Shown here in pieces: positions 2,149-64,000 of a stretch of 64,000 bases of DNA. The translations under genes were made by a program, and so were the position numbers. The DNA lies in IMG/VR virus record IMGVR_UViG_3300042973_000021, positions 64,001 through 128,000 of that record; one strand, given 5' to 3'. Source of the DNA: a virus (taxonomy: Duplodnaviria; Caudoviricetes). The notes under the pieces are model-generated. The model searched no databases. It worked only from the letters and a program-made list of their open reading frames with translations, and was not told the DNA's origin. The stretch's first letter is position 1. Every line of letters begins with the position of its first letter.

Positions 2149-2735
2149 AGGCGCTCACTTCCTTCCTGCATTTCTTGAAACTCAAATAATACCCGGGCTG
2201 ATTTTCTGTCTTCTAGCTTTATCACATGTTTGCTATCACCGGATGCTGTATATTGAAAAAAACCTTCCTTATCAGTTGGGTTTCCGTTCTTTAAACACTG
2301 CCTAGTTGATGCTAGTAGCGAAAAGGTATCACCTGGACTAACTGCCTCATTAAATATCACCTTGTGCGCCCCTGCTCCTTGAGACAATTGGATACTGCCT
2401 GCAGCCATATTTTGGTTGGGATAAATATGACAGTCAAGGCCAGCGGAAGTTGAACCCAGATTGAAGAGAATAACCGTCTCTCCGCTACGAACCACTCCGT
2501 TATAAAAACGAGCGGGAACAATAACACCGCCCTCCCGGAATTTTTGAAGCATCGTTTCTGTATTAATTGTATAACCAGTTAGACGATCACCTTCCTGAGC
2601 CTGAATATCAGTGAAATAAACAGTACCTGTGCAATCTCCAAGAAGTAGTTTCACTGTTACGCTTACTACTCGTTTATCCTCTTTACAATGAATCGTCTCA
2701 GCAAACCTGGTAAATGTTACTGACATCTGCACCAC
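2145..2735 (-). CDS. Phage tail-associated hypothetical protein
   Basis: ORF in tail operon; N-terminus paralogous to 2736-2930 (DCTGTVYFTD vs DCSGEVFFTD); true start probably ATG 2726. Confidence 0.7.
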   Translation of the reverse strand: MVQMSVTFTRFAETIHCKEDKRVVSVTVKLLLGDCTGTVYFTDIQAQEGDRLTGYTINTETMLQKFREGGVIVPARFYNGVVRSGETVILFNLGSTSAGLDCHIYPNQNMAAGSIQLSQGAGAHKVIFNEAVSPGDTFSLLASTRQCLKNGNPTDKEGFFQYTASGDSKHVIKLEDRKSARVLFEFQEMQEGSERL

Positions 2736-2930
2736 CTACCCATCCAACGTCCACTTAATTTCTGACACATGACCAATCCAGCCCGTAGCAACAGAACCAC
2801 CTTGCAAAAGCATATCTGTAAAGAACACCTCACCAGAACAATCAGTAATGAAAAGACGGATGGTAAGCGACTTTATCTTTCCAATACCTCTCGGTGTAAT
2901 AGCATGTGCTGTCTGTGAAAAATAAGCCAT
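2736..2930 (-). CDS. Small tail-associated protein (jelly-roll C-terminal fragment-like)
   Basis: RBS AGGAG upstream; motif VFFTDMLLQGGSVATGW typical of phage tail beta-sandwich ends. Confidence 0.65.
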   Translation of the reverse strand: MAYFSQTAHAITPRGIGKIKSLTIRLFITDCSGEVFFTDMLLQGGSVATGWIGHVSEIKWTLDG

Positions 2931-2945
2931 AGCACTGGCTCCTTC

Positions 2946-5468
2946 CTAAAAGAGATCAATAAACCTGGTTTCTGTCGACCCATCCTCATATTCAATGACA
3001 ACTTCAATCCCAACTTGCCCGTTTGGCCCTTTCTGAAGATTTTCCGATGCAATCTGCGCTGAGAAAGTGTAACTCTTCCTACTGGCAGGATAAACGGTCT
3101 GGGATAGACTTTTCGTCATCCCTAAAACGCCCTCAGCTTTAAAAGAAGCTGTTCCTGATACACCATTATTAGGGTCAACTGTAAAACCTGAACTTAACCA
3201 ATAGGTTAGACCATCATCAGCTCGTGAATTTCGTAGATGATTAAAAGGCACTAAGTCTTTTAATTCCTGACGGTCAAGAACATCAGTGGAAGATAAAATA
3301 TCGGCTGCTTTATCCCATCCAGCAGAGGAATCTCCTAATTCTCTTAAAGTTGTTGATAGCTCCAGCACTGTTTTCCATGGTTCTTGTAGATTATATTGTC
3401 TGCGAACTACACGAGTTTTGACAGATAACTTCAAATCTCTATCATCCACAGTTACTATATCACCTAGTTTCCATGCCTCATGCTCATATCCTGTCAACAC
3501 TGATAAGTCCATTGCAGAGAGAACATATGAGATTCGTGGCTTCGCATACTGAGCTAAGCGCATATTAGCGAACTCAAGCAGCTGATAAGGGTTGCTGATT
3601 GATGAAGCATCCAGCGTTCCAACTCTAACTTCTGATGAATAGCTATAATCCTCAACATACTCTTTATTACCATTGATAGAAGCAAATGTTATACCATCTT
3701 TTCCATAAGCATAAAGGCGAGTGATTAGACTTCTAGTATCCACTACGCGCTGTATACTTTTCATGTTCTTTCTATAGCAAAATAATGCCCCACTATCAGT
3801 ACCTCCAAATGTCAAAAGGTGTACCAGACGATTGGCACTATCGAAAATCAAGTCACCACCATGAATATTCTGTATGGCTCGAAGAATAGATAAAGCATTC
3901 TTCTCTGTTGATTGCCATGTTCGTTTTGTACTGACAGTGACATTTCCTAATGACCAGCCAGTACCAAGTAAGGCATAGCGCATAGGTACTTCTGGTGTCT
4001 CTGCGACAAATTCCATGGGTTCTTTTTCAGCGCTAAAGGAAAGATCATAAAATGCAGCTTCCGCATATACCTGAGTTACAACTCTTCCATCTGAGCTTTT
4101 CTCATCTGTTATGGTTCGAATACGATAAACATCATTGACAATCTGCACCTGTTTTTCATTGTCTAAGGTCTCGCGCTTGGAATCATGAAATGGCAGTTTA
4201 AACTCCAAAATATCAGCTCCATTCACCTCACTTGTTACCACAATATCAAAGGCATTTTCTAACACCGCTTCCCAAGCCCCGTTAGTATCCAACACAACTG
4301 GTCTGGCAAATCCAAGTCTCTCATAAGGAGGTTTTGGTATATCATGTAGTTGTATTTCAAGAAGTTTAGGAGTTCTACTGGTGTCTTGAGTAGATAATGT
4401 AATTCGATAACGGATATATTCTCTGTTAGGCGACTGCAGTTCCCCACTTGCTCCAACGGCCTGCCATTCAGTCCAGCTAGACAGATCGTCTGATGTAGAA
4501 GTTTCCACTAGGCTTATGGCTGTTATACCTGCGGTGTATTCACTTGTAACTGATACCCTGCCCGTTCCTGCAAGACTACAGGCAGCTGCTATCGTAAAAA
4601 GCTGACCACTTTGTGCATAGACTCCGTTTGTTGCTTTCAACATGACAGAGCCAGGGTCCGCAAGAGCATCTACATCAGCAGCACTGTCACCACCGTTTGC
4701 CAAAATTGAAGATTTGAAATAGGAAATAAGATCCTCCATGGTAAGTAAAGAATCTTTTTCATAAAACCAGTCATCAAATCCTCCTGCGTAATAATAGGTA
4801 TTTGCATGCATCCCCATCACAATATCCGCAACACAAGATTGATTTAAGTCTCCAGTGAATGTTCGAACTGGAGATTGCCAAACAGCGCCATCACTTCGGT
4901 CACAAAGTAAGTTCTGCACCCTTTTGTTGTTTACCTCGATAACAGAAGCGATAAAGTACCACCCGTTATTCTTTAGGGTAATAGTAGGCGTTTCGGTCTG
5001 ATCATATATCAAGGAGCCTGAGGCATTATACAGCATTAATCGCAACCTTCCCTGAAATAAAGAAACATAAAAAATTGGCTGACCAGGCCCTTGTCTAGTA
5101 TTAAAAATCGGGATATACGTCTGCCCTACAGAATAAGTAGTTGGATTTATCCATCCGCCAACAACAATCTTTTCACCTAAATCACTAAAAAAGCTACCGT
5201 CATTGGTAGCCACTAAATGAGTCTTTTCACTTGTTGGATTAATGATATTCTGCCTGAAATATCTTCCTAATCTACCGGATAACAAGTTGGCTGATGTGCC
5301 TGACCATCCGGATACAAAGAAGTTTCTGTTATGACCGGAGTCATCTGTAAGCATATTGTTGCTATCTGGTGCGGCTTCATTAAATCGCCACAGAGCAACT
5401 GTCTTCTCGCTTACAGGAAACTCACCCGTAAAATCCGTCTGTGATGTTAAGATTGATTTAATTGCCAC
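2946..5468 (-). CDS. Tail spike/minor structural protein (LamG-like N-terminus + prophage tail endopeptidase-like domain)
   Basis: 840 aa after Dit; ALWRFNE/WYFIA LamG-like motifs; ITRLYAYGKDG and LGDIVTV motifs of Tal-type proteins. Confidence 0.85.
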   Translation of the reverse strand: MAIKSILTSQTDFTGEFPVSEKTVALWRFNEAAPDSNNMLTDDSGHNRNFFVSGWSGTSANLLSGRLGRYFRQNIINPTSEKTHLVATNDGSFFSDLGEKIVVGGWINPTTYSVGQTYIPIFNTRQGPGQPIFYVSLFQGRLRLMLYNASGSLIYDQTETPTITLKNNGWYFIASVIEVNNKRVQNLLCDRSDGAVWQSPVRTFTGDLNQSCVADIVMGMHANTYYYAGGFDDWFYEKDSLLTMEDLISYFKSSILANGGDSAADVDALADPGSVMLKATNGVYAQSGQLFTIAAACSLAGTGRVSVTSEYTAGITAISLVETSTSDDLSSWTEWQAVGASGELQSPNREYIRYRITLSTQDTSRTPKLLEIQLHDIPKPPYERLGFARPVVLDTNGAWEAVLENAFDIVVTSEVNGADILEFKLPFHDSKRETLDNEKQVQIVNDVYRIRTITDEKSSDGRVVTQVYAEAAFYDLSFSAEKEPMEFVAETPEVPMRYALLGTGWSLGNVTVSTKRTWQSTEKNALSILRAIQNIHGGDLIFDSANRLVHLLTFGGTDSGALFCYRKNMKSIQRVVDTRSLITRLYAYGKDGITFASINGNKEYVEDYSYSSEVRVGTLDASSISNPYQLLEFANMRLAQYAKPRISYVLSAMDLSVLTGYEHEAWKLGDIVTVDDRDLKLSVKTRVVRRQYNLQEPWKTVLELSTTLRELGDSSAGWDKAADILSSTDVLDRQELKDLVPFNHLRNSRADDGLTYWLSSGFTVDPNNGVSGTASFKAEGVLGMTKSLSQTVYPASRKSYTFSAQIASENLQKGPNGQVGIEVVIEYEDGSTETRFIDLF

Positions 5469-51938: not shown

Positions 51939-53282
51939 ATGACCAATGCATCAGCCAAGAAGATGATTATGACAGAGAATTTCAATGGCTTTAATAAAAT
52001 CATATCACAAGCGCTGGATGAAATGAAGTCAGCAGGTGGACCGGATTTCGATCTTAACAAGGTCAATCTGGCTGAACTGGAACGCAGAACCGGGATAAGC
52101 AGGGCTCGGCTTCGGAGATTAAAGGCAAACCAATTCAAAGTTCTGCCTGACAAGCGTTGCGGAAGAAAAGCTCCTGTAACAAAACTGACTGGATTTACAG
52201 ATATCATCGATGCGCTTCTTAGAAAGGATGTGACTAATTCCAATGCGATCTATGACCGCCTTGTAGAAAATGGATATCAGGGCGGGAAGACGATTATCAA
52301 GAACTACATACAACAGCATAAGTATCTGATACCGCCGCGCAGACGAATCGTAGACTCTCGCGGAAACCGCGGCAGACGCTACACGACGGCTCCGGGAGAA
52401 TGTTACCAGATGGACTGGGGTTTCGTAACGGTCGAGGATCAGTCAGGGAATTCTTACCGCATAGCATGCTTTGCCATGATATGCCACTGCTGTGGAAAGC
52501 AGTACATCGAATTCTTCCCGAATGCACGCCAGGAAAACCTGTTTATCGGAATGATCCACGGATTCATGTACCTGGGTGTCCCTGGGTATGTTCTGACCGA
52601 TAATATGAAAAGCGTCGTCATCCGGCGTGACCTCGCCGGCAGACCGATCTGGCAGAAGGACTACGAGCTATTCATGAAGAATCTGGACTTTTCTACCCGC
52701 TTATGCAAACCAAGACACCCTTTTACCAAAGGGTCAGTAGAACGACTGGTCCGATTCGTAAAGGATAATTTCCTCCCGGGAAGAGATTTCCGGGAGCTCA
52801 CAGACCTGAATTATGAGGCTGTGCGTTGGTGTGAACGCCAGAATGGAAATTATCACAAAGCGGTGGATTGCGTACCTGACGTAAAGCATCAGGAAGTCTG
52901 CATGATAACTGCACGGGAGCTGGAAGAGTCTGTCAAGCTCAACTACTATCTTTGTCCAGAGCGGAAGATCTCCTTCGATGGCTTCGTAAACTATGAAGGC
53001 CGACGGTTTGGCGTCCCATACTGGTACACAGAAAAGACCTGTCGTGTACGGCGTGATGGCTATGTTCTTCAGATATTTGATTCCAGCTTAACACGACTCC
53101 TCTGTGAACATGATGTATCATGGAGCAGAACAGATAGTTTCTGCAAAGATCAGTACTGTGAAAGCCAGCCGGAAGAGAAGCCAACCATGCCGGTCCGTAC
53201 GCGGATCCACCAGTTAGATCCACCAGAATATGGTTCCGGTTTCGATCGATTCAATTTCGGAGAGGTGGGCAGCGATGAGTGA
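51939..53282 (+). CDS. istA: IS21 transposase
   Basis: PGE..QMDWG, TDNMKS, P.TKG.VER motifs. Confidence 0.93.
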   Translation: MTNASAKKMIMTENFNGFNKIISQALDEMKSAGGPDFDLNKVNLAELERRTGISRARLRRLKANQFKVLPDKRCGRKAPVTKLTGFTDIIDALLRKDVTNSNAIYDRLVENGYQGGKTIIKNYIQQHKYLIPPRRRIVDSRGNRGRRYTTAPGECYQMDWGFVTVEDQSGNSYRIACFAMICHCCGKQYIEFFPNARQENLFIGMIHGFMYLGVPGYVLTDNMKSVVIRRDLAGRPIWQKDYELFMKNLDFSTRLCKPRHPFTKGSVERLVRFVKDNFLPGRDFRELTDLNYEAVRWCERQNGNYHKAVDCVPDVKHQEVCMITARELEESVKLNYYLCPERKISFDGFVNYEGRRFGVPYWYTEKTCRVRRDGYVLQIFDSSLTRLLCEHDVSWSRTDSFCKDQYCESQPEEKPTMPVRTRIHQLDPPEYGSGFDRFNFGEVGSDE

Positions 53283-54078
53283 TTCCATTTACGAGCAGAT
53301 CGGCAGAGACGCTTTTTATCTGAAACTGGATCTCAGCGCAGAACACATCGCTAAACTGTCGATGAACGAAAGCTGGTCGGATGAGCATCTCCAGGCGGTC
53401 GCAGATATTTTCACCTATATGCGGGAGCAGAAAGAGCAGAAAACGATTTCGACGCTTCTGAGACTCAGCAGACTGCCACTGAAAGAGCCGAAGACATTTG
53501 AAAACTTTGATTTCAGCCAGATCCGCGGAAAAGATATGACTGCACTGCAGGAACTCCCAACACTTGCGGCGCTGTATGGTCATCGTAATCTGGCATTTAT
53601 TGGGCCACAGGGAGTTGGAAAGACCCACCTCGCAATGGCTTTCGGAAGGGCCTGCTGTGAAAAGGGATACAAGACCTATTTCCTGAAAGCCACAGAACTG
53701 AATCAGAAACTGTTGGATGCCAGAAAGTATGGCCGGGAAAAGTCCACGATCAACGGATTAGTGAAACCATCATGCCTGATTATCGATGAGATCGGCAGAT
53801 GCGTGTTCGACAAGGTCAATACCCGGATGTTCTTTGATATTATCGACCGGAGATACAACAAAGAAGGCCCTAACACGCTGATCCTGACGAGCAATCTAAT
53901 GCCCGGGAAATGGGGAGAGTTCTTCAGTGAGGATTCATCACTCCTGTGTTCTTTGGACAGGATATTCGACATAGCGACTGTATTCACGATCAAGGGACAG
54001 ACATACCGTGGAAAACAGTGTAATACAATAACTCTGGCTGCGGGACGACCGAGCGCGCTACCTAAGCAGGACATTTAA
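53275..54078 (+). CDS. istB: IS21 helper ATPase
   Basis: GPQGVGKTHLA, LIIDEIG, LTSN, LDR motifs. Confidence 0.93.
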   Translation: MSDSIYEQIGRDAFYLKLDLSAEHIAKLSMNESWSDEHLQAVADIFTYMREQKEQKTISTLLRLSRLPLKEPKTFENFDFSQIRGKDMTALQELPTLAALYGHRNLAFIGPQGVGKTHLAMAFGRACCEKGYKTYFLKATELNQKLLDARKYGREKSTINGLVKPSCLIIDEIGRCVFDKVNTRMFFDIIDRRYNKEGPNTLILTSNLMPGKWGEFFSEDSSLLCSLDRIFDIATVFTIKGQTYRGKQCNTITLAAGRPSALPKQDI

Positions 54079-54718
54079 AGAAAGGAAAAGGCTGATGCAT
54101 TGGTCGAAATGGATTGACCCAAAATGGCGATTTTAATCCGGCTATCTGTGGCGTTTATCGCCCGACGCTAACAACAGTAGAATCTGCTGAAGAGGAATTA
54201 CTTCTCTTTATGAAGCGAAAAAGTCGTAAGAGCGGACAAGTAATTGAAGCAAGCTGTAAGCAAACGAACGAAGGTTTTGTCGTCTTACAGGGCAGTCATA
54301 TTGAAACGATAGATTCTGAAAGTATTCCGCCTGGAATTAAAGACCGTAGACAAAAAGCCAAAATAGATGAAAATGGCATACTTCAAGAAAACATCTTATT
54401 TCGTAGCCCATCATATGCTGCTGCTTTTGTCATTGGCGGGCACGTAAATGGACTGGTAGAATGGAAAACGAAAGACGGGGTATCATTGAAAGAAATAGAA
54501 AACAGTGAAGAAAATTAAGCATAATTTACATCCATCCTGTCTCCTCAACCCTGTTAATATATCTAACCTATCAACTCAACCCTATCACTTTTAGGGCAGT
54601 TGATATGTTCCCGTGAACAATAAAAATAAGGGTTTCCCGACATTGGCATCTCCGGCAAAGTAGCCGCAAGAAAAACTCAATGTCTGGAAACCCTTTATTT
54701 ATGGGCACTTTCAGCTAT

Positions 54719-54760
54719 CTATTTCTCAACTCTTGACATCAATACCACGCACTCAACATG
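54719..54760 (-). other. att arm of left prophage encoding rlmD/rumA-like C-terminus (HVECVVLMSRVEK*)
   Basis: CATGTTGAGTGCGTGGTATTGATGTCAAGAGTTGAGAAATAG; matches my recollection of the RlmD C-terminal HVE motif, a known serine-integrase target. Confidence 0.75.
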
Positions 54761-54866
54761 TGAAAGTTAGGCTATTTCACACATTTGCAGATTTCCCTTT
54801 ATTTACAAGGGTTTTCTGGCTGTTTGAGTGTATCGTACATCCATATCGCCGTCTCAGATGAGTAGG

Positions 54867-55811
54867 CTATTTTTGCTTTTTGGAGCTGTATTTCGTGCTC
54901 TTCCTCTTCCTTTCACCAGATTCGGTAATAACAATATTGCTTCGTTTCGCTCGTGCTTCTTGAGCAGCTCGGAATACGTCCTCTGTAATGATCGGCGGAT
55001 GGCAGTCCTTCATCTCAAACATCTGACCCTCCGTCACAGAGTCTGCCAGCCGCACTGTTCCTATATATTTCTCGTTTGATAGCAGGGTATCTACTGACCT
55101 CTTGCTCCACCGTTCCTTCCCCGTAGGGGAGGGAATCTTTTGTTCAGCCAGTTTCTTTGTAATCCCCAATATGCTTGCTCCGTCAATGTACCAACGGAAT
55201 ATATCACGTACCACTTGTGCCTGTGTCGGCTCTACCACGAGATTTCCATCATCGTCCTTCACATAACCATACAGGCGCTTTCGGTAATTGCCGGAACTGC
55301 CGTTCAAAGCGCGGTTCCTGAGTCCCATGCGGATATTCATGCTTCTAGTCTCATTTTCAGCCTGCGCAAATGACTCAGCAACAGAAATGAGCAGATCATC
55401 ATCAACTACATCCGTATCAAGACCATCCTCATCAAATATGACACGTACCCCAGCGGCTTTTAGTCTTCGAAGCGCCTCAAGCGTATCAACGGTATCTCTT
55501 CCAAACCGGCTGATGCTTTTTGTAAGGATAACCGATATATGATGCGCCTCAGCCTCTCGGATCATCCGCTCAAATTCTCGGCGCGATGCCTCTCCCCTTG
55601 CGGTATCAATATCTATAAACGTATCAGTCAGTTTCCATTGCTCGACATTGGCCACCGCTCTTGTTAGAGCTGCTATTTGTGCGGCAAGGCTATTTAGTTG
55701 GTTCTTTTCACCGGTACTAACCCTGCAGTAGATGCCAACATTCATACCCGGATCAGTTCTTTTGGCAGGTATATACCACACCTTTTGGCTCACTGTACCG
55801 CCTCCTTTCAC
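54867..55811 (-). CDS. Serine recombinase (resolvase + recombinase domain; probable GTG start 55793)
   Basis: YCRVST catalytic Ser, KSISRFGR, AQAE, YGY, LSNEKYIG, HPPII. Confidence 0.92.
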   Translation of the reverse strand: MKGGGTVSQKVWYIPAKRTDPGMNVGIYCRVSTGEKNQLNSLAAQIAALTRAVANVEQWKLTDTFIDIDTARGEASRREFERMIREAEAHHISVILTKSISRFGRDTVDTLEALRRLKAAGVRVIFDEDGLDTDVVDDDLLISVAESFAQAENETRSMNIRMGLRNRALNGSSGNYRKRLYGYVKDDDGNLVVEPTQAQVVRDIFRWYIDGASILGITKKLAEQKIPSPTGKERWSKRSVDTLLSNEKYIGTVRLADSVTEGQMFEMKDCHPPIITEDVFRAAQEARAKRSNIVITESGERKRKSTKYSSKKQK

Positions 55812-55885
55812 CTCATTTTAGCCTAATTATATCGAATAATTCTACCAATGTACAGTAGTCTATTATTGGCCTTTTCCGTCTCAAA

Positions 55886-55933
55886 ACACAAGATATAGGA
55901 GCCGAGTCGCCATTCATGCACTACATATTGTAT
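55886..55933. promoter_or_regulatory. Tandem NrdR-box-like sites (copy 1)
   Basis: acaCaAgATaTaGgag (55886) and gcaCtAcATaTtGtat (55918), 32 bp apart, fit acaCwAtATaTwGtgt. Confidence 0.55.
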
Positions 55934-56066
55934 GACATCAACGCTACCGTCTCAACGTGTGAAAGTTAGGCTATTTCACACATTTTGTAGAATTTCCTTT
56001 ATTTACAAGGGTTTTCTGGCTGTTTGAGTGTATCGTACATCCATATCCCCGTCTCAGATGAGTAGG

Positions 56067-57011
56067 CTATTTTTGCTTTTTGGAGCTGTATTTCGTGCTC
56101 TTCCTCTTCCTTTCACCAGATTCGGTAATAACAATATTGCTTCGTTTCACTCGTGCTTCTTGAGCGGCTCGGAATACGTCCTCTGTAATGATCGGCGGAT
56201 GGCAGTCCTTCATCTCAAACATCTGACCCTCCGTCACAGAGTCTGCCAGGCGCACAGTTCCTATGTATTTCTCGTTTGATAGCAGGGTGTCTACTGACCT
56301 CTTGCTCCACCGTTCCTTCCCCGTAGGGGAGGGAATCTTTTGTTCAGCCAGTTTCTTTGTAATACCCAATATGCTTGCTCCGTCAATGTACCAACGGAAT
56401 ATATCACGTACCACTTGTGCCTGTGTCGGCTCTATGACAAGGTTCCCATCATCGTCCTTCACATAACCATACAGGCGCTTTCGGTAATTGCCGGAACTGC
56501 CGTTCAAAGCGCGGTTCCTGAGTCCCATGCGGATGTTCATGCTTCTGGTCTCATTTTCAGCCTGCGCAAATGACTCAGCAACAGAAATGAGCAGATCATC
56601 ATCAACTACATCCGTATCAAGACCATCCTCATCAAATATGACACGTACCCCAGCGGCTTTTAGTCTTCGAAGCGCCTCAAGCGTATCAACGGTATCTCTT
56701 CCAAACCGGCTGATGCTTTTTGTAAGGATAACCGATATATGATGCGCCTCAGCCTCTCGGATCATCCGCTCAAATTCTCGGCGCGATGCCTCTCCCCTTG
56801 CGGTATCAATATCTATAAACGTATCAGTCAGTTTCCATTGCTCGACATTGGCCACCGCTCTTGTTAGAGCTGCTATTTGTGCGGCAAGGCTATTTAGTTG
56901 GTTCTTTTCACCGGTACTAACCCTGCAGTAGATGCCAACATTCATACCCGGATCAGTTCTTTTGGCAGGTATATACCACACCTTTTGGCTCACTGTACCG
57001 CCTCCTTTCAC
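56067..57011 (-). CDS. Serine recombinase, second copy (2 aa differences)
   Basis: As copy 1; LVIEP vs LVVEP, RVKR vs RAKR. Confidence 0.92.
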   Translation of the reverse strand: MKGGGTVSQKVWYIPAKRTDPGMNVGIYCRVSTGEKNQLNSLAAQIAALTRAVANVEQWKLTDTFIDIDTARGEASRREFERMIREAEAHHISVILTKSISRFGRDTVDTLEALRRLKAAGVRVIFDEDGLDTDVVDDDLLISVAESFAQAENETRSMNIRMGLRNRALNGSSGNYRKRLYGYVKDDDGNLVIEPTQAQVVRDIFRWYIDGASILGITKKLAEQKIPSPTGKERWSKRSVDTLLSNEKYIGTVRLADSVTEGQMFEMKDCHPPIITEDVFRAAQEARVKRSNIVITESGERKRKSTKYSSKKQK

Positions 57012-57085
57012 CTCATTTTAGCCTAATTATATCGAATAATTCTACCAATGTACAGTAGTCTATTATTGGCCTTTTCCGTCTCAAA

Positions 57086-57133
57086 ACACAAGATATAGGA
57101 GCCGAGTCGCCATTCATGCACTACATATTGTAT
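57086..57133. promoter_or_regulatory. Tandem NrdR-box-like sites (copy 2)
   Basis: Identical to 55886-55933. Confidence 0.55.
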
Positions 57134-57333
57134 GACATCAACGCTACCGTCTCAACGTGCCTAAGAGTCGTACTATTAATCTCCCAACTGTGAGCATGTA
57201 ATTATTTACATAAATTCAAAACGCAGGAAAAGTTCATAGGAATCATCCGGCAAATCCCTATATATAAACACTATAATACAGTGTTCACTATAAATGCAAT
57301 AAAAATATAATATGCGAAATATTACGCAAAAAT

Positions 57334-57362
57334 AGCCGCGGTCCAGTATTCGGACTGCGGCT
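57334..57362. terminator. Intrinsic terminator after recombinase operon
   Basis: AGCCGCGGTCC-loop-GGACTGCGGCT hairpin with A/T runs on both sides. Confidence 0.7.
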
Positions 57363-57378
57363 GTTTTTTGCTCACTTG

Positions 57379-58953
57379 CTAAGCTTCGACTTCTACCCTA
57401 AGGCCTGATTTGAATTCGACTATGACCTTCTCCTGGCAGATTATTACCCTTCCTACCAGGCGCGTTACCAGAAGGTCTGAGTATTCGCTTACGGCCTCGG
57501 TCTGGTTTCCAAGGAAACGGGCCAGGTCATCCGTGCGCTTTTTGGTTTCGGTGTCTTTTGACCTGTTCATAAGAACAGACATCCTCTGGCTCTGCAGTTT
57601 TCTGATTTTATTTCCTATCTTTTCAATCTTCTCTTCATCGGACCCGGCTGCAAGAAGTTTTTCCTGCTGCTTTTTAAGCTCCGCATCGATCTCCTCAAGT
57701 CCCAGGCCGCTCTCCTCCTCAAGAACGGACCGGACATTATCCTGAAGCTGCGGGATAACAGAATTCCTGTCTGCCCAGGCATCGTTTACTGCGGTGACAA
57801 TGGCGGCATGAAGTTCCTCCTCGCTTATAGTCCGGGCCTGGCACTTCCTCCCGGTCTGCTTCATGCTAAGCCGGGTCACGCATCTCCAGACAATGGAGAT
57901 CTTCCCGTTGCGGCGGTACCACTTGACCCTCCGGTAGATATCTCCGCAAAGTCCGCAAAATACGATCCCTGAAAGAGCATACTTGCTGGAAAAGCATCTC
58001 TTTCTTCCGTTTGAGGACATATTGGCTCGCCTCTCCATCTCGGCCTGGACCCGCATGTAAGTATCCCGGTCGATGATCGGCGGCTGGCTGTTTTTCACAT
58101 AATACTGGGGAGCAGACCCGTCATTTCGCTTTCTTGTCTTGTCGAGGACACTCACCGTAACAGTCTTCTGCAGTAGAGCATCACCGATGTACTTCTCGTT
58201 TTTCAGGATCTGCTTGACATTCGTAGGCCACCACTTGGTGCTGCCGGACCCGTTTTTGATGCCGTCTCTTGCAAGGCCTTCTGCTATTTTTCCGTAGCTG
58301 TTTCCGTCCAGGTAGTCTCTGAAGATCCGCCTTACCGTCCTGGCCTGCTCTTCATTGATGACAAGTTTTCCGTCAGGTCCTTTGTCGTAGCCTAAGAACC
58401 TGGTGTAGTTTACCCTCACCTGTCCCTGCTGGTTACGAAACTGTATTCCCATCTTTACGTTTGCCGACAGGGATTCAGATTCCTGCTGGGCAAGGGATGC
58501 CATAATGGTAAGCAGGACCTCACCCTTGGCATCGAGGGTATTGATGTTTTCTTTCTCGAAGTAGACGGCAATGTTTAAGTTCTTTAGCTCCCTTGTGTAT
58601 TTCAGGCAGTCGACCGTGTTTCTTGAAAACCGGCTTATAGACTTGGTTATGATCATATCGATCTTGCCAGCCTTGCAGTCCTCGATCATATTGTTAAAGG
58701 CAGTCCGCTTTGCCGTGCTGGTGCCTGAAATTCCATCGTCGGCAAAGATCCCCGCAAGTTCCCAGGCAGGATTTGCCTTGATGTAGTCAGTGTAATGCTT
58801 CACCTGCGTCTCATAGCTTGACTCCTGTTCTTCATAGTCTGTCGATACCCGGCAGTAAGCAGCGACCCTGGTCTTATGAATGCCACTGCCTTCTGTCCGG
58901 GTTCCTGTTACCTTGCTCGCCGGGATGACGGTTACATTGTTTGCTACATCCAT
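57379..58953 (-). CDS. Large serine recombinase
   Basis: [29 protein letters not shown] zinc ribbon, coiled coil. Confidence 0.95.
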
Positions 58954-59375
58954 TACTTGATCACCTTCTCTTTCACAAGTCCGTACATGTACTCAGCCTG
59001 CTTTCTAGGATCAGCATGAAACTTCCGCGGCGAGAGGAGTACGAACTCTGTCTCAGGCTTTGGCGGTACTCTTTTTCTGCGTCCCCGCTTTGCGATACCA
59101 TGCACGCAGTATCTTCTCTGAATTTCCTCCTCGCAGGCTGTTATTTCCTCCTCGGTAAGAATCTGCGGATAAAAGTCATCGCCCAGGTATTTCCTGTTGG
59201 TGATGAGCTTTTTCACCCAGGCGTGGCTATGCGAAAGGCCCTCCGCGGAAGCCGCCGAGGCAAGGCTCATCCCGCCAAGATAATTCTTTATAATCCGGTG
59301 AATGGTTTCGGCCTCCTCTTCAACGATTAGGGCCTTTCCGTTCTCAATTCTGTAGCCGTATGGTGTATGTTTCAT
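58953..59375 (-). CDS. Small recombinase-domain protein (middle gene of triplet)
   Basis: PYGY.IENG, N.KYLGD..YPQI; no catalytic domain. Confidence 0.85.
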
Positions 59376-60910
59376 CGAATCACCTCCTTAAAAGTCGGTC
59401 CGCATTTCAGGACAAATTCGATTTCCGTTTTGCTGCGGACGATTATCTTCTCCACAAAGTCTGTAAACAGATCTCCGTCAAACTCTGTGAGCATCCGGCC
59501 CTTTCCGGTATAGCGCATCAGTTTCTCAAGCTCCTCTTCCCTGTCCAAAGAGCTCTCATCTTTTGCAGAAAGAAGCTTCTTTTCTTCAGAAAGTCTGGCC
59601 TTCTCCTTTTCAAGACCGGCACTTTCTCTTTCGTAAGTCTCTGAATCAATTAGTCTCATGGTATAAAAGGAGAGGATCTGCTTTCTTCTCTCCTCGTTCT
59701 TTTTTAGAAGCTCATCGATTCTGGAAAGCTGCTCTCCTCCAGCCGTATGGGACTTATTCCTTACCGAATATCTGTAAGGAACCAGGATCACTTCTCTTGC
59801 AAAAGTAAGCTTGTTCAGCATAGTTGCAAATGCTGCCTGCAGGGCATCCTCCCTGATGGGCTTCTGGCTGCAGGAGTTTCTGTTCTCAAGATGCCCGGAG
59901 CAGGCATAACACCTTCTGCCTTCTGCCCCGATTCTTTTCCACTTTGACCCGCACTCACCGCATATGACTTTTCCTGACATCGGATAGCGGTTCTGCGTCT
60001 GGTCTGTTCCGTAGAAGTTTCCCTTTTCCGCACCGTTCTTTGACATGACTCTGCATGCGGCATCGAAAACCTCCTGGCTGATAATGGCTTCATGATGATC
60101 GGCTACCCTGTACTTCTGCCTCTCACCGTTATTTATGTGGCGGTTGTAATTATCATCTGTGTAGGTCTTCTGCAGGATAAGAGAGCCGGTATAGGTTTCA
60201 TTTCTTATCACGTCCCGGATTGTGCTGCTTCTCCATCTGCCGCCCCTCTTTGTGGTAATGCCATCTGCATTCAGCTCCTTTGCGATTTCTGTTGTGGACT
60301 TGCCGTTTAAGACCCCGTCAAAGATCCGCTTTACCACCCTGGCCTGATCGGAAACCGGTACCATTTTCCTGCCCGCGTATTTATAGCCGTAAGGAGCGGG
60401 GCTTAAGTAAGTCCCGTTGGCAAAGCGCTTCTGCAAGGCCCATCTTTCATTTGAGGAGATTGACTTCGACTCGCTCTGGGCAAGGCTTGAGAGAATGGAG
60501 AGCATAAGTTCGCTTTCCATCTTTCCGGTGTCAATGTTCTCCTTCTCGAAATACATGTAGACGCCTTTGCTCTGAAGCTCCCTTACGATTGCAATGCTGT
60601 CCACGGTATTTCTTGAAAACCGACTTATGGACTTTACGATGACATAGTCGATAAGGCCCTTCTCGCAGTCTTTTATCATCTTAAGTAGTCCTTCTCTCTT
60701 TGCCGTCTTTGTCCCGCTGATGCCCTCATCATAGTAGAGCCCGGCAAACTCCCAGTCCGGCCTTGCCTTTATGTAGGCTTCGTAGTGCCTCTTCTGTGCT
60801 TCAAGGCTTATGAGCTGGTCATCCGAACCTGTGGACACTCTGGCATAGGCAGCCACGCGGAGCTTGATCTTTCCGGCCTTTGCTGCCTCTATCTTTGTTA
60901 TCTGTGCCAT
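59372..60910 (-). CDS. Large serine recombinase
   Basis: [28 protein letters not shown] zinc ribbon. Confidence 0.95.
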   Translation of the reverse strand: MAQITKIEAAKAGKIKLRVAAYARVSTGSDDQLISLEAQKRHYEAYIKARPDWEFAGLYYDEGISGTKTAKREGLLKMIKDCEKGLIDYVIVKSISRFSRNTVDSIAIVRELQSKGVYMYFEKENIDTGKMESELMLSILSSLAQSESKSISSNERWALQKRFANGTYLSPAPYGYKYAGRKMVPVSDQARVVKRIFDGVLNGKSTTEIAKELNADGITTKRGGRWRSSTIRDVIRNETYTGSLILQKTYTDDNYNRHINNGERQKYRVADHHEAIISQEVFDAACRVMSKNGAEKGNFYGTDQTQNRYPMSGKVICGECGSKWKRIGAEGRRCYACSGHLENRNSCSQKPIREDALQAAFATMLNKLTFAREVILVPYRYSVRNKSHTAGGEQLSRIDELLKKNEERRKQILSFYTMRLIDSETYERESAGLEKEKARLSEEKKLLSAKDESSLDREEELEKLMRYTGKGRMLTEFDGDLFTDFVEKIIVRSKTEIEFVLKCGPTFKEVIR

Positions 60911-60940
60911 TTATCTCACCTTCCTTTCTATGGCGCACTA

Positions 60941-60972
60941 CATAAATCACTCTAAAGCGGCTATTTATCAAG
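60941..60972 (-). promoter_or_regulatory. Third copy of CTTGATA-N11-TAGAGTGATTTATG motif, upstream of recombinase operon
   Basis: Same spacing as copies at 21398 and 22437. Confidence 0.55.
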
Positions 60973-61185
60973 TTCATTCGCATCAATCCCGGCGCTTCGC
61001 GGAGAAAAGCTTTCTCTGTTTTTCTCCATGATCCGATCAAACTCCTCCTGGCTGATAAGTCCTTCCTGCAAGAGCTTTTCTGTAAGCTCCCTGGCAAGAA
61101 GATAGCGGTATTCAGCTCTCATGTCCTCGTCCGTTATCTGCCTCGCCTCCGTATTAAACTGTTCAGTTATCTTTGTTACATCCAT
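60961..61185 (-). CDS. SHOCT-like small protein
   Basis: LL.EGLIS.EEF..I motif; precedes recombinase triplet. Confidence 0.75.
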   Translation of the reverse strand: MDVTKITEQFNTEARQITDEDMRAEYRYLLARELTEKLLQEGLISQEEFDRIMEKNRESFSPRSAGIDANELDK

Positions 61186-61241
61186 AAAAAAACACCTCCT
61201 GTCATGTAGCCTTGGCAGGAGGTGAAATCTGACGTTTTTTA

Positions 61242-64000
61242 TTAATCTTTCTGGTAAAATTCGCAGGTGTACCCATCTGCCCGGAGATTAAGGCCAGGTG
61301 CCCAGGAAGGAGCTCTGCCCATCTGCTCACAGAGGGCATTTAAGGAAACCTCTGGATCTGCCTCAATTACAAGCTCGTCATGGATATGCATGACGATAGA
61401 GCAGTTTCTTAAAGTCTTCATAGAGTTGCAGAGAATGTCGCGGGACGTGGCCTGGACGATGTTTTCGACAAACTTCGGCCCGTAGGATTCAAGGCGCTCC
61501 CACTTTCTGGTGCTGCCAGTCCCCTCATAGGTCACGCACTCGCCTCCGAAGCGGTTAACTCCGATTCTCGGACGTGCGTAGGCAAGCTTTCTCCCTGAGG
61601 GAAGAGTGATAAAAAGCATGCCGGACTGATAAAATATGGTGAGCCTTCCAAGCTTCGTGGTCTTATGATATTTCACAGCATCCTTAACAGCCCGGTCCAC
61701 TTCCCACCAGAAGCGGACGATCTGCTTATTTGCACTTCTCCAGGAGGAGACAATGCCCGGAAGCTCATCCTCAGACAGTCCCATCTCGATGGCGCCCATC
61801 GCCTTAAGGGCTCCGGTCGAGCCGCCATAACCACATGCCAATTCCGCTATTTTCCCTTTCTGCCTGAGCTCGCCGTTTACACCATGCTTTACAACCGGCA
61901 CTCCAAACATGCGGCTTGCCGTGGAGCAGTAGATATCTTCTCCGTTTGCAAAGGCTTCTGACTTCCAAGTTTCGCCGGCATACCAGGCGATGACCCTGGC
62001 CTCGATGGCGGAAAAGTCAGCGACATAAAACTTCTGGCCTTCACGAGGGATAAAGGCAGTCCGTATAAGCTGAGACAAAGTGTCCGGGACATCCTCGTAG
62101 AGGAGCTTTACCGAGTCAAAGTCTCCTGAGCGAACCAGGGCTCTTGCTTCTGAAAGGTCGGGCAGATGATTCTGAGGTAGATTTTGTAATTGAATTAAGC
62201 GGCCAGAATTGCCAGTTACCCATACTTTCCCGTTTCTCCTTACCAGAAAATACCCTGTCTTTGTAGCAGCACAGTAAACCTTCCCGTCATAGTCAGTTAT
62301 CGTCGGCTTGACACGGATCTCGTGACCAGCCCCTGGGCTGAGCCAGATATCGAGGATATAAGCGTCTTTCCAGTTTTTATGCTCCCCACTTAGCTTTTTA
62401 AGCCGCAGGGAAGCGCATCTTCCGGACATATGCGCAAGTGCCTGGACAATATCGGCATTCTGCCTGTTGCAGGTGGTGTACTGGATGCTGTTCGGTGCAG
62501 GACAATATCCATCCCACTGCGGAAGCTCATCAAAAAATATATCGGGATTTTCATCAAGGAGCCAGAATCCGAATGTCTTGGTGCGAAATTCCCGAAGCCA
62601 TAGCGGCACGCATCGTGCTGGAATGGTGATTGTCACAGTTCCGTTTGTGTTTTCACGTTCAACAAAGGATATTTCCGCTTTACGCAGAAGATGCTTGCAG
62701 CGCGCAATCTTACGCAGCTTCTTAAAATGGAATCTCACCTCACCGTCAGCCGTATAGTACCCGTCAGCCTGCGTCATGATAAGAACACGGATCCATGCCG
62801 GACTGGCACATCCGCGGTGATATCGGTAACCATTCAATGGTATGCAGGGTTGGCATTTAGCCATTTCTTCAACTGTCATATCTGTCCAGTTGCCCCCATA
62901 TCTTTTCTTTACACGCATTTTGTGATCCGGAGTGGAGCATTGGTCAATCCTGTTGTCCTGATATGTGTACATCTTCCCGCGGTAATCGAATTCCAGTTTT
63001 TCTGCTTTCTGAAAAGATACTGCTTCGGATGTGGCATTCCAGCAGGCGATAGCTCCTCCCTGCCATTCATCAAGTCTCTCCCATCCATCCTGTGTCAGAA
63101 CTTCGTGGTCTCCTGTAAGACACCATCTGCCTGTACGGTTTGCCCCGTAGAACATAAACATTCCTCTGGCCCTGCCGTCAGAGCAGACTGCCCGCTCCAT
63201 CGTCTGGTATTTCTTGACAGACGATTTGGCAAGCTGCAAACGCAGTACAAGGACCTCCTTGATCCCGTCAGGAGCTTCCTTAATCGCGGCTGCCACTTCC
63301 TTTTTACCAAGGCTCTCAAGAGGAAAGCCCTTTTCCTCAAGCCAGTCCTTAAGCTGCATGACGCTGTTCGGGTTAGAAAGCCCTGTCAGCTTTTTAAGCT
63401 CCTCAGTAATCTCACCTTTAGAGATTTCATCCATCTGGATAGCCTTATGGACCAGCTCCATATCAAGCCGGACCCCTCTGTCATTTATCTCCTGGTCGAT
63501 CGTATACTCATCCCATACAAAGTCAGGAACCGGAAAATGTGACAGGCGCTTTTGAATTGCCATTTCAACTTCCACATCTCTTTTGTTATAACGCTTGAAG
63601 GTCTCCCATTTGTCGGGAGCATCAGATGGCAGGTTCCTTTTCCTTCCCCCGTTTGCCTTTGTCGGAGTGCAGGGAAGGGAGAAATACTTGATAAGAGCTT
63701 TTCCTTCATCCATCTTCTGATCTTCTAGTTTCAGGACTTCGCCGGCTCCCTTAAGAGACAACGGAAGTCCAAGAGTCGCTGCCCAGACCATTGAGCAGTG
63801 CCAGCCGGAAGGATTTAAGAACCTGGCAGGCACTGCAGTCAAAGGGTGGTGATCGTAAAAGGGATACAGGCTTACTCCCCGGTCCCGAAGGTACCTTGAC
63901 AGGCAGACCCGCTCAAAGTTAGCGTTAAAGGCCCACTTGATCACTGTATCATCGGTAAGGGCATCAAGAACATCATCCGGGATTGTTTCACCAGATGCCA
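61242..64000 (-). CDS. Phage family-A DNA polymerase containing an intein (start outside window)
   Basis: Collinear with 32043-33977 apart from a 305-aa insert; ADFSAIEAR, MHIHDE motifs. Confidence 0.93.
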   Translation of the reverse strand, partial: ASGETIPDDVLDALTDDTVIKWAFNANFERVCLSRYLRDRGVSLYPFYDHHPLTAVPARFLNPSGWHCSMVWAATLGLPLSLKGAGEVLKLEDQKMDEGKALIKYFSLPCTPTKANGGRKRNLPSDAPDKWETFKRYNKRDVEVEMAIQKRLSHFPVPDFVWDEYTIDQEINDRGVRLDMELVHKAIQMDEISKGEITEELKKLTGLSNPNSVMQLKDWLEEKGFPLESLGKKEVAAAIKEAPDGIKEVLVLRLQLAKSSVKKYQTMERAVCSDGRARGMFMFYGANRTGRWCLTGDHEVLTQDGWERLDEWQGGAIACWNATSEAVSFQKAEKLEFDYRGKMYTYQDNRIDQCSTPDHKMRVKKRYGGNWTDMTVEEMAKCQPCIPLNGYRYHRGCASPAWIRVLIMTQADGYYTADGEVRFHFKKLRKIARCKHLLRKAEISFVERENTNGTVTITIPARCVPLWLREFRTKTFGFWLLDENPDIFFDELPQWDGYCPAPNSIQYTTCNRQNADIVQALAHMSGRCASLRLKKLSGEHKNWKDAYILDIWLSPGAGHEIRVKPTITDYDGKVYCAATKTGYFLVRRNGKVWVTGNSGRLIQLQNLPQNHLPDLSEARALVRSGDFDSVKLLYEDVPDTLSQLIRTAFIPREGQKFYVADFSAIEARVIAWYAGETWKSEAFANGEDIYCSTASRMFGVPVVKHGVNGELRQKGKIAELACGYGGSTGALKAMGAIEMGLSEDELPGIVSSWRSANKQIVRFWWEVDRAVKDAVKYHKTTKLGRLTIFYQSGMLFITLPSGRKLAYARPRIGVNRFGGECVTYEGTGSTRKWERLESYGPKFVENIVQATSRDILCNSMKTLRNCSIVMHIHDELVIEADPEVSLNALCEQMGRAPSWAPGLNLRADGYTCEFYQKD
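62208..63122 (-). mobile_element. Intein with LAGLIDADG-type homing endonuclease
   Basis: Starts CLTGDHEVLT..GW, block B STPDH, ends VYC....GYFLVRRNGKVWVTGN followed by Ser; central TQADG and QWDG motifs. Confidence 0.9.

Follow-up and report, generated by a model that had tools for sequence, protein, structure and literature searches.

The window analysed here, a stretch of 64,000 nucleotides covering positions 64,001 to 128,000 of the Caudoviricetes record IMGVR_UViG_3300042973_000021, lies within a 162-kb IMG/VR provirus record that is a trimmed provirus. Two small integrative elements, copy A and copy B, each holding one gene for a short serine recombinase, lie side by side in this window at the end of a larger element (Table 1). 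A reading made earlier from the sequence alone had proposed two direct 1.2-kb units, each starting with a replacement of the 3' end of an rlmD (rumA)-type gene. The copies indeed form a direct repeat with a period of 1200 bp, and their sizes have been refined to 1199 and 1200 bp, with junctions at 57159/57160, 55959/55960 and 54760/54761. Read on the minus strand, both units open with the 27-nt core CACGTTGAGACGGTAGCGTTGATGTCA, which runs to a stop codon and encodes HVETVALMSYNM. This attachment (att) core occurs three times and nowhere else in the entire 162-kb contig. The cores at 57133–57159 and 55933–55959 are identical, and the one at 54734–54760, beyond copy A, is diverged and belongs to a gene end encoding HVECVVLMSRVEK. 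The units thus show the marks of insertion at the rlmD/rumA site, namely the His-Val-Glu (HVE) codons, the replaced gene end and the flanking core repeats. The recombinase is the sole gene of each unit, with none of the conjugation or mobilisation genes that define integrative and conjugative elements (ICEs) or integrative and mobilisable elements (IMEs). Antisense open reading frames (ORFs) of 54–84 aa within the recombinase gene have been set aside as spurious, as the substitutions track the recombinase frame.

Table 1. Positions in the window of the two mini-elements, their parts and the adjoining larger element.
Feature	Position	Strand	Details	Basis
Mini-element copy A	54761–55959	-	1199 bp, rlmD-distal	Repeat search, alignment of both units
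Mini-element copy B	55960–57159	-	1200 bp, adjoins prophage end	Repeat search, alignment
Short serine recombinase A	54867–55793	-	308 aa	Pfam, alignment, structure matches
Short serine recombinase B	56067–56993	-	308 aa, 2 aa differ from A	Pfam, alignment
Proximal arm, copy B	57121–57159	-	Att core CACGTTGAG and replacement rlmD 3' end (HVETVALMSYNM, stop); copy A equivalent 55921–55959	
Distal (left-arm) end, copy A	54761–54777	-	AAATAGCCTAACTTTCA; same motif closes copy B at 55960–55976	
Native rlmD 3' end	54719–54760	-	Last 13 codons (HVECVVLMSRVEK) and stop; right arm of outermost att junction J3	Sequence
Hairpin	54623–54700	none	23-nt arms, 87% complementary	Inverted repeat downstream of native rlmD stop
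NrdR-box pair, copy B	57086–57133	-	Box A 57118–57133, box B 57086–57101, linker 16 bp; copy A 55886–55933	
Promoter-like site P1, copy B	57127–57155	-	-35 TTGAGA in att core, -10 TACAAT in NrdR box A; copy A 55927–55955	
Promoter-like site P2, copy B	57026–57054	-	TGTACA-17-TATAAT, before recombinase gene; copy A 55826–55854	
Inverted element-end heptamer pair, copy B	57018–57064	-	TAGACTA ... TAGGCTA, 37 bp apart, around P2; copy A 55818–55864	
End of larger element (prophage) at same att core	57160–60910	-	Terminal ...CTCTTAGG, then large serine recombinases	Sequence, Pfam
Large serine recombinase	57379–58953	-		Pfam
140-aa ORF	58953–59375	-		Pfam
Large serine recombinase	59372–60910	-		Pfam

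Judged from its sequence, the recombinase gene likely starts at a GTG codon 7 nt past the ribosome-binding site AAAGGAGG, and the length, given before as ~308–314 aa, is accordingly put at 308 aa. Pfam searches of the protein have found a Resolvase domain (PF00239, E 7e-27) and a Recombinase domain (PF07508, E 8e-22), at residues 27–171 and 195–290 in the numbering of the 314-aa form. The protein ends ~20 residues past the Recombinase domain in a basic tail (KYSSKKQK). No match to the zinc ribbon PF13408 was found in either short recombinase, and the only 2 Cys residues are not in a ribbon context. In this they are, as had been proposed, unlike the two neighbouring large serine recombinases (LSRs) of 524 and 512 aa, both of which have Resolvase, Recombinase and Zn_ribbon_recom domains; the 140-aa ORF between these has a weak, sub-threshold match to the Recombinase domain. 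The short protein therefore shares the catalytic and Recombinase domains of large serine integrases and is without their zinc ribbon, coiled coil and length of ~400–700 aa. It is also distinct from small resolvases and invertases, as its C-terminal part is a Recombinase domain of ~100 aa and not HTH_7, and from IS607-type enzymes, as the catalytic domain comes first in order and the likeness to structure 6dgc is confined to that domain. The catalytic domain matches structures 3g13 and 3bvp. Alignments to solved structures cover SPbeta SprA (9dxh, residues 59–295) and the recombinase domain of A118 Int (4kis), and stop at the end of the Recombinase domain. A structure predicted from an alignment of 12 sequences had a mean predicted local distance difference test (pLDDT) score of 61, with the catalytic domain below 50 and the Recombinase domain confident. 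Across an alignment of 12 relatives, conservation runs the full length of the protein and takes in the basic tail (KRSN...KYSSKK); neither of the catalytic motifs, YCRVS and SRFGRD, varies.

The target of the units had been given as an rlmD-type att site. This is borne out by relatives that lie behind an intact rlmD and by an empty site in a metagenome, but the body of rlmD is off the contig; a search of the 162-kb contig did not find it, because the record is a trimmed provirus. Copy B is 99% identical to an element (L013:4610–5810) in a Clostridia metagenome-assembled genome (MAG), where two elements of 1184 and 1200 bp lie directly behind an intact rlmD and have recombinase genes 80% and 99% identical to those of the window. 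Comparison of att junctions across loci and contigs also bears on the proposal that the unit boundaries coincide with the crossover points. The junctions do fall at the att cores, but the exact position can be given only to within the shared 9-bp core CAYGTNGAG, any position of which is a possible crossover. Dyad symmetry, with T..CCT-type motifs roughly equidistant, favours the first CA as the putative crossover. Further copies of TTGAGACGG (57073–57085, 56049–57) were considered as conserved accessory sites and dropped, as they are not kept in relatives.

Logan contigs of four runs have been compared with copy A and its flanks, each run being represented by its contigs. In a landfill metagenome (X7), the left flank 54600–54760 joins with 0 mismatches an uninterrupted rlmD (...FVDMFPHSG/HVE), which is the empty site, so that the DNA left of 54760 is the native region downstream of rlmD. 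The hairpin in this region is a probable rlmD terminator. In the contigs of a sludge run (X2), a single unitig with ends at 54759 and 55959 makes up the unit, and its proximal end continues into three different sequences: the end of the prophage, a further mini-element, and an rlmD (...FDNFPGTK) that belongs to a different host. The metagenome contigs diverge at the core in every case. Overall, the contigs show insertion polymorphism and several contexts, and not excision in action. Variants of the unit in X2, X7 and X9 are mosaics of A-type and B-type differences with further changes, which suggests frequent recombination between co-circulating copies. A metatranscriptome contig (X15) spans part of the recombinase gene and an attP-type junction; DNA carry-over is possible in this case, and the contig has not been counted as expression.

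Relatives of the recombinase have been sought in a collection of 5.8 billion proteins with the length left open to 172–550 aa. The best 120 matches were 64–99% identical and all of 230–312 aa (most of 305–312 aa) with Resolvase and Recombinase domains only, the shortest of them coming from contigs of ~1 kb. A genome scan with one genome per species gave 163 confirmed relatives, from which 79 loci were retained, and the family length stays at 305–312 aa over 45–99% identity. The hosts of the 79 loci are mostly Firmicutes and include Clostridia of many families, Bacilli, Tissierellia, Negativicutes, a mollicute, and Actinomycetota and spirochaete MAGs. Among the 66 loci with an upstream flank, 41 have an intact rlmD (TRAM and U5-methyltransferase) that ends just upstream of the recombinase gene. 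Elements are flanked by CAYGTNGAG cores across loci, and their distal ends follow the family logo AAATAGCCTAAnTATCA. The claim that the units are site-specific elements and not a random duplication has gained support from these relatives, which are flanked by rlmD-type att arms in dozens of unrelated genomes.

Fifty elements with clean boundaries measured 1181–3590 bp (median 2140). Nine of them, of 1.18–1.30 kb, are recombinase-only units with recombinases 50–99% identical to those of the window, so that the minimal form recurs across the family. The remaining bounded elements carry one or two cargo genes on the same strand. The description of a recombinase-only element thus holds for the window units and these nine, but not for most family members. 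Likewise, a search for homologues had been proposed that would find them alone between rlmD att arms in variable copy number; the arms and a copy number of 1 to 3 per locus were found, but mostly with cargo. The cargo, some of it resistance-like, includes an AadA-type (aminoglycoside) nucleotidyltransferase, an APH-like kinase (aminoglycoside phosphotransferase-like), GNAT acetyltransferases, a glyoxalase/bleomycin-type protein and an EryCIII-like (macrolide) glycosyltransferase. Further cargo includes an EamA transporter, metallophosphoesterases, a CAAX protease, SAD/SRA with NUDIX, a spare class-I Trp/Tyr-tRNA synthetase (L044), an extracytoplasmic function (ECF) sigma factor with a 481-aa serpin (L035:9837–13281) and many genes without a family. 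No relaxase, coupling-protein or replication family was found in the cargo of the larger members. Two elements encode an identical 306-aa recombinase with different cargo, DUF2992 in one (L009:5837–7752) and a 214-aa unknown protein with a GNAT acetyltransferase in the other (L010:5837–8328), and the first ~25 nt of their proximal arms differ too. Such differences suggest that elements exchange cargo and arms as modules. Near-identical elements are present in unrelated hosts (e.g., L071, L073, L075), and stacks of two or three unlike elements have been found at six loci (L013, L035, L039, L046, L067, L069).

Alignment of the two copies in the window showed that the first ~630 nt (att core, leader and catalytic domain) are 100% identical and that the last ~570 nt are ~3.5% diverged. 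The recombinase genes differ by 12 synonymous and 2 non-synonymous changes (dN/dS 0.05), and dN/dS against the recombinase of another locus (L015) is 0.11. The divergence and the nature of these changes indicate that the duplication was not recent and simple and that the gene is under selection; judged from such substitutions, purifying selection is strong over the whole protein. These data bear on the view that the units are decay products, in which the truncated LSR gene of a bigger element was later duplicated by unequal homologous recombination. The protein stops at the point at which an LSR would go on into its zinc ribbon, and the 630-nt identical stretch shared by the tandem copies would suit such an exchange. 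However, length and C-terminal tail are conserved over 45–99% identity and many phyla, dN/dS is 0.05–0.1, and the unit boundaries are att cores in every locus. The stacks hold unlike elements with differing cargo, the same unit occurs in several contexts within one sample, and the ~306-aa forms are not mis-called fragments, as their stops and tails are conserved. An origin by decay is therefore very improbable. Homologues occurring only as truncated ends of larger elements, which would have told against the first proposal, were not what was found: 13 of the 21 loci with full 10-kb flanks are free of LSRs, in addition to the recurrence of recombinase-only units.

The leader of each unit has two promoter-like sites with putative regulatory boxes. 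Mutational work has set C4, A6, A8, T9, T11 and G13 as the critical positions of the NrdR box (PMC13584703). The leader boxes of both copies match 12 of 12 key NrdR positions and have the layout of an NrdR operator (16-bp boxes with a linker of 15–16 bp, at a promoter), and on this ground they are read as a putative operator. Of the 33 elements in the clade with 61–99% identity, 29 have an NrdR-like pair that matches at least 11 of the 12 positions, always at offset +26/+27, and none was found in the ~50% clade. NrdR is encoded in all four host genomes checked; three of these had a match to ribonucleotide reductase (RNR), with exactly one NrdR-like pair at each such RNR locus. Around P2, an inverted TAGCCTA pair with a spacing of 37–38 bp was found in 25 of 28 clade elements against 0.1 expected from shuffles, and the TAGCCTA motif is also present at the distal end of the element. 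By analogy with resolvase at res, the heptamer pair looks like a candidate site for binding and autoregulation by the element's own recombinase. Expression of the recombinase is probably under double control, with NrdR predicted to act at P1 and the recombinase itself at P2. No published case of an NrdR operator on the recombinase of a mobile element has been found.

An operator for a host regulator could also be a sign of domestication. The units would then be a host module tied to rlmD, with a role such as varying the 3' end of rlmD or of a gene downstream, and the constant linkage to rlmD in the same orientation, together with the putative NrdR operator, would fit this view. Against this, the module is patchily distributed (a near-identical flank has an empty site), copy number ranges from 1 to 3, and the cargo differs and includes resistance-like genes. 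Elements that are near-identical in unrelated hosts (L071, L073, L075) or lie inside prophage records are also hard to reconcile with a host function, and there is very little probability that the module is domesticated.

Larger elements share the site with the short ones. Their ends at the same core read ...CTCAAGG, ...CTCGAGC and, in the window, ...CTCTTAGG. The window, Tepidibacillus (L009) and several phage records all have a short-recombinase element directly behind one or more phage LSR genes. The phage records are those of the mitomycin-induced Gardnerella phage vB_Gva_AB1 (MW387018) and the prophages Javan102, 105, 108 and 112 of Streptococcus constellatus. In vB_Gva_AB1 (L100:1106–4660), the order LSR, small ORF, LSR and short-recombinase element is the same as in the window, and the triad is placed after a lysin and a sigma factor. 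As the elements adjoin phage LSRs and have no transfer genes, co-excision with a neighbour is a likely route of spread.

The anatomy, target and family of the units, together with the purifying selection, stacking and presence/absence polymorphism described above, make it probable that each unit is complete in itself and represents the minimal form of a widespread, site-specific and autonomous integrative family in which the ~306-aa two-domain recombinase is the sole constant gene. In the proposed cycle, a circular form would carry an attP with a left arm ending in AAATAGCCTAAnnnTCA and a right arm mimicking the last 10–13 codons of rlmD. The conserved left arm extends ~31 bp from the core. 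Strand exchange with the chromosome, carried out by the recombinase, would take place within the His-Val-Glu codons, and rlmD would keep a working end. As the element brings a right arm that mimics the native one, insertion would leave a junction next to rlmD that can serve as a target again. More mini-elements, and prophages or ICEs with LSRs, would then pile up at the shared core with the newest next to rlmD. Outward from the unseen rlmD, the stack of the window would be read as prophage, copy B, copy A and native rlmD end, with copy A arriving first and the prophage last. The host sensor of deoxynucleoside triphosphates (dNTPs), NrdR, would act through the operator pair overlapping P1, and the recombinase through the TAGCCTA sites around P2; we infer this double control, the arrival order and the hitch-hiking from the arrangement. 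Spread would most likely occur by excision or packaging together with a neighbouring rlmD-targeting prophage or ICE.

Several points weigh against this autonomy. Catalysis by the short enzyme alone, the circular form and excision are inferred, and because the tandem junction is the same as the expected circle junction, circles are indistinguishable from tandems in these contigs. The vB_Gva_AB1 record is suggestive as to co-packaging and was rejected as proof of it, since its contigs were ordered on a bacterial reference genome. LSR elements adjoin in 8 of the 21 fully flanked loci as well as in the window. The attP left arm of the 61–68% clade has GACATGTTTCC, which repeats the rlmD motif GAYATGTTYCC 8 bp farther out, and the distal arms of L009–L057 carry TGGACATGTTTCC, the rlmD Asp-Met-Phe-Pro codons at a distance from the core 8 bp greater than in rlmD. 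Such an arrangement recalls the attP/attB scheme of zinc-ribbon integrases and is puzzling for an enzyme without a zinc ribbon. Characterised large serine integrases need the zinc ribbon for binding of the outer half-site and the coiled coil for direction, and integrases without a zinc ribbon are not known to work. By comparison with them, the short enzyme would have to recognise half-sites of ~30 bp and avoid futile excision without those domains.

Some of these observations would fit an alternative in which the units are satellites unable to move alone, the LSRs of co-resident prophages or ICEs do the strand exchange, and the short protein is an accessory, a regulator or a competitor. The att core is, moreover, shared with LSR-type ends at junction J1 of the window (...CTCTTAGG/CACGTTGAG), at seven other loci (L020, L023, L025, L029, L037, L049, L056) and at a loose end in X2, and LSRs also adjoin the elements in the phage records. 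Against a satellite stand the 13 of 21 fully flanked loci with no LSR within 10 kb, the invariant YCRVS and SRFGRD motifs and the strong purifying selection on the whole protein. The element-specific TAGCCTA sites, which occur both in the crossover arm and around the promoter of the recombinase gene, would fit binding by the element's own protein. The published rumA LSR elements, the streptococcal ICEs, are also laid out differently, with a GA crossover and the att site inside the integrase gene (PMC4120198, PMC4701971). Dependence on a helper is thus unlikely, and the zinc-ribbon-like layout of attP is the reason that it is kept at a small but appreciable probability. The LSR-free loci and the selection on the whole protein make catalysis by the short enzyme the most economical reading.

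A wider form of the autonomous reading is put forward tentatively, as a fair conjecture that falls somewhat short of probable. In this form, the ~306-aa two-domain recombinase alone would be the integrase, and the 1.2-kb units would be the smallest known autonomous elements, regenerating their own target. The family would consist of self-inserting single-gene cassettes in Firmicutes, some with resistance-like cargo, gated by NrdR to mobilise when a neighbouring prophage or ICE replicates.

Other features have been recorded nearby. Two more LSR gene clusters lie outside the window, at 2033–3708 and 59559–62012 of the 162-kb record, and as none has an rlmD-type core, several elements that differ in target appear to be present in the record. 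At 61242–63998 of the window, a phage-type DNA polymerase gene with a large LAGLIDADG-like insertion (intein) runs off the window. At 51939–54078, an IS21-type pair (a 447-aa IstA-like transposase and a 282-aa IstB-like ATPase) is flanked by a DUF4357/RAMA gene and by a 195-aa ORF without Pfam matches; this region is part of the native sequence that follows rlmD and adjoins an apparent type I restriction-modification region.

Studies have established the 3' end of rumA/rlmD as a hotspot for serine-integrase ICEs, IMEs, vanG elements, nested islands and prophages, among them ICE-r, vanG-1/2, ICE_Spy2096_rumA, IME_SpnAP200_rumA and CTn5 (PMC4120198, PMC4701971, PMC5357655, PMC5704250, PMC11578063). 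The mini-elements share with these the His-Val-Glu target ~11 codons from the end of rumA, the mimicry of the 3' end, stacking and serine-recombinase chemistry. The rumA elements, however, are of 10–80 kb with conjugation, mobilisation or virion genes and integrases of 520–640 aa with zinc ribbon and coiled coil, whereas the mini-elements are of 1.2–3.6 kb, have no transfer or replication genes and encode a 306-aa recombinase with its own stop well inside the element. In staphylococci, the staphylococcal cassette chromosome elements (SCCmec/SCC, with CcrAB or CcrC) insert at the 3' end of orfX/rlmH; they are of 20–60 kb, and their Ccr proteins are full LSRs of 450–560 aa. The use of the 3' end of a ribosomal RNA methyltransferase gene, the tandem composites, resistance or resistance-like cargo without own transfer genes and, as proposed for the mini-elements, a regenerated site are common to SCC and the mini-elements, which differ in having a far shorter recombinase and element, another target gene and other hosts. 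At the rlmD site and, for SCC, at rlmH, both stacking and end replacement were already known. In the accretion-mobilisation of cis-mobilisable elements (CIMEs) with ICESt1/ICESt3, the recombinase has been lost and a tyrosine integrase acts in trans. CIMEs (reviewed in PMC5704250) are likewise small att-flanked elements in tandem with a larger self-transmissible element and spread by co-excision, as the mini-elements probably do, but unlike them the mini-elements retain a conserved recombinase of their own.

Tn4451 and Tn4453 encode TnpX of 707 aa with C-terminal DNA-binding domains, and Tn4451 is of 6.3 kb with a mobilisation gene and low target specificity (PMC5704250). With these and other small serine-recombinase IMEs of Firmicutes, the mini-elements have in common the small size and a resistance or resistance-like cargo, and they would also share a circular intermediate and a serine recombinase that both excises and inserts without a directionality factor. 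The literature searches found no 1.2-kb element reported to have a ~306-aa two-domain recombinase as its only gene, nor any cassette-like family built on such a recombinase, in line with the first impression that the element class had not been described. If the short enzyme works alone, the need for a zinc-ribbon/coiled-coil module in site recognition and synapsis would be overturned, an integrase of far smaller size would be at hand, together with a conserved landing site that occurs naturally, and autonomous integrative elements would have a new bottom size. An NrdR operator on the recombinase would tie mobility to nucleotide-pool stress. Resolvases of the Tn3/gamma-delta type, ~185 aa long and equipped with a small helix-turn-helix domain, serve to resolve cointegrates and do not integrate a circle into a chromosomal gene. 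The mini-elements resemble resolvase at res by analogy, in that putative binding sites overlap the recombinase's own promoter and accessory sites would lie beside the crossover site. With integron cassettes they share promoter-less or same-strand cargo genes, often resistance-like, in head-to-tail stacks at one site; the integron cassettes have no recombinase and depend on a tyrosine integrase and a folded attC, whereas the mini-elements each bring their own serine recombinase. Overall, the family resembles a cassette system parallel to integrons, in which bacteria of gut, sludge and fermentations accumulate single genes at one hotspot, and it is of relevance to the tracking of gene flow.

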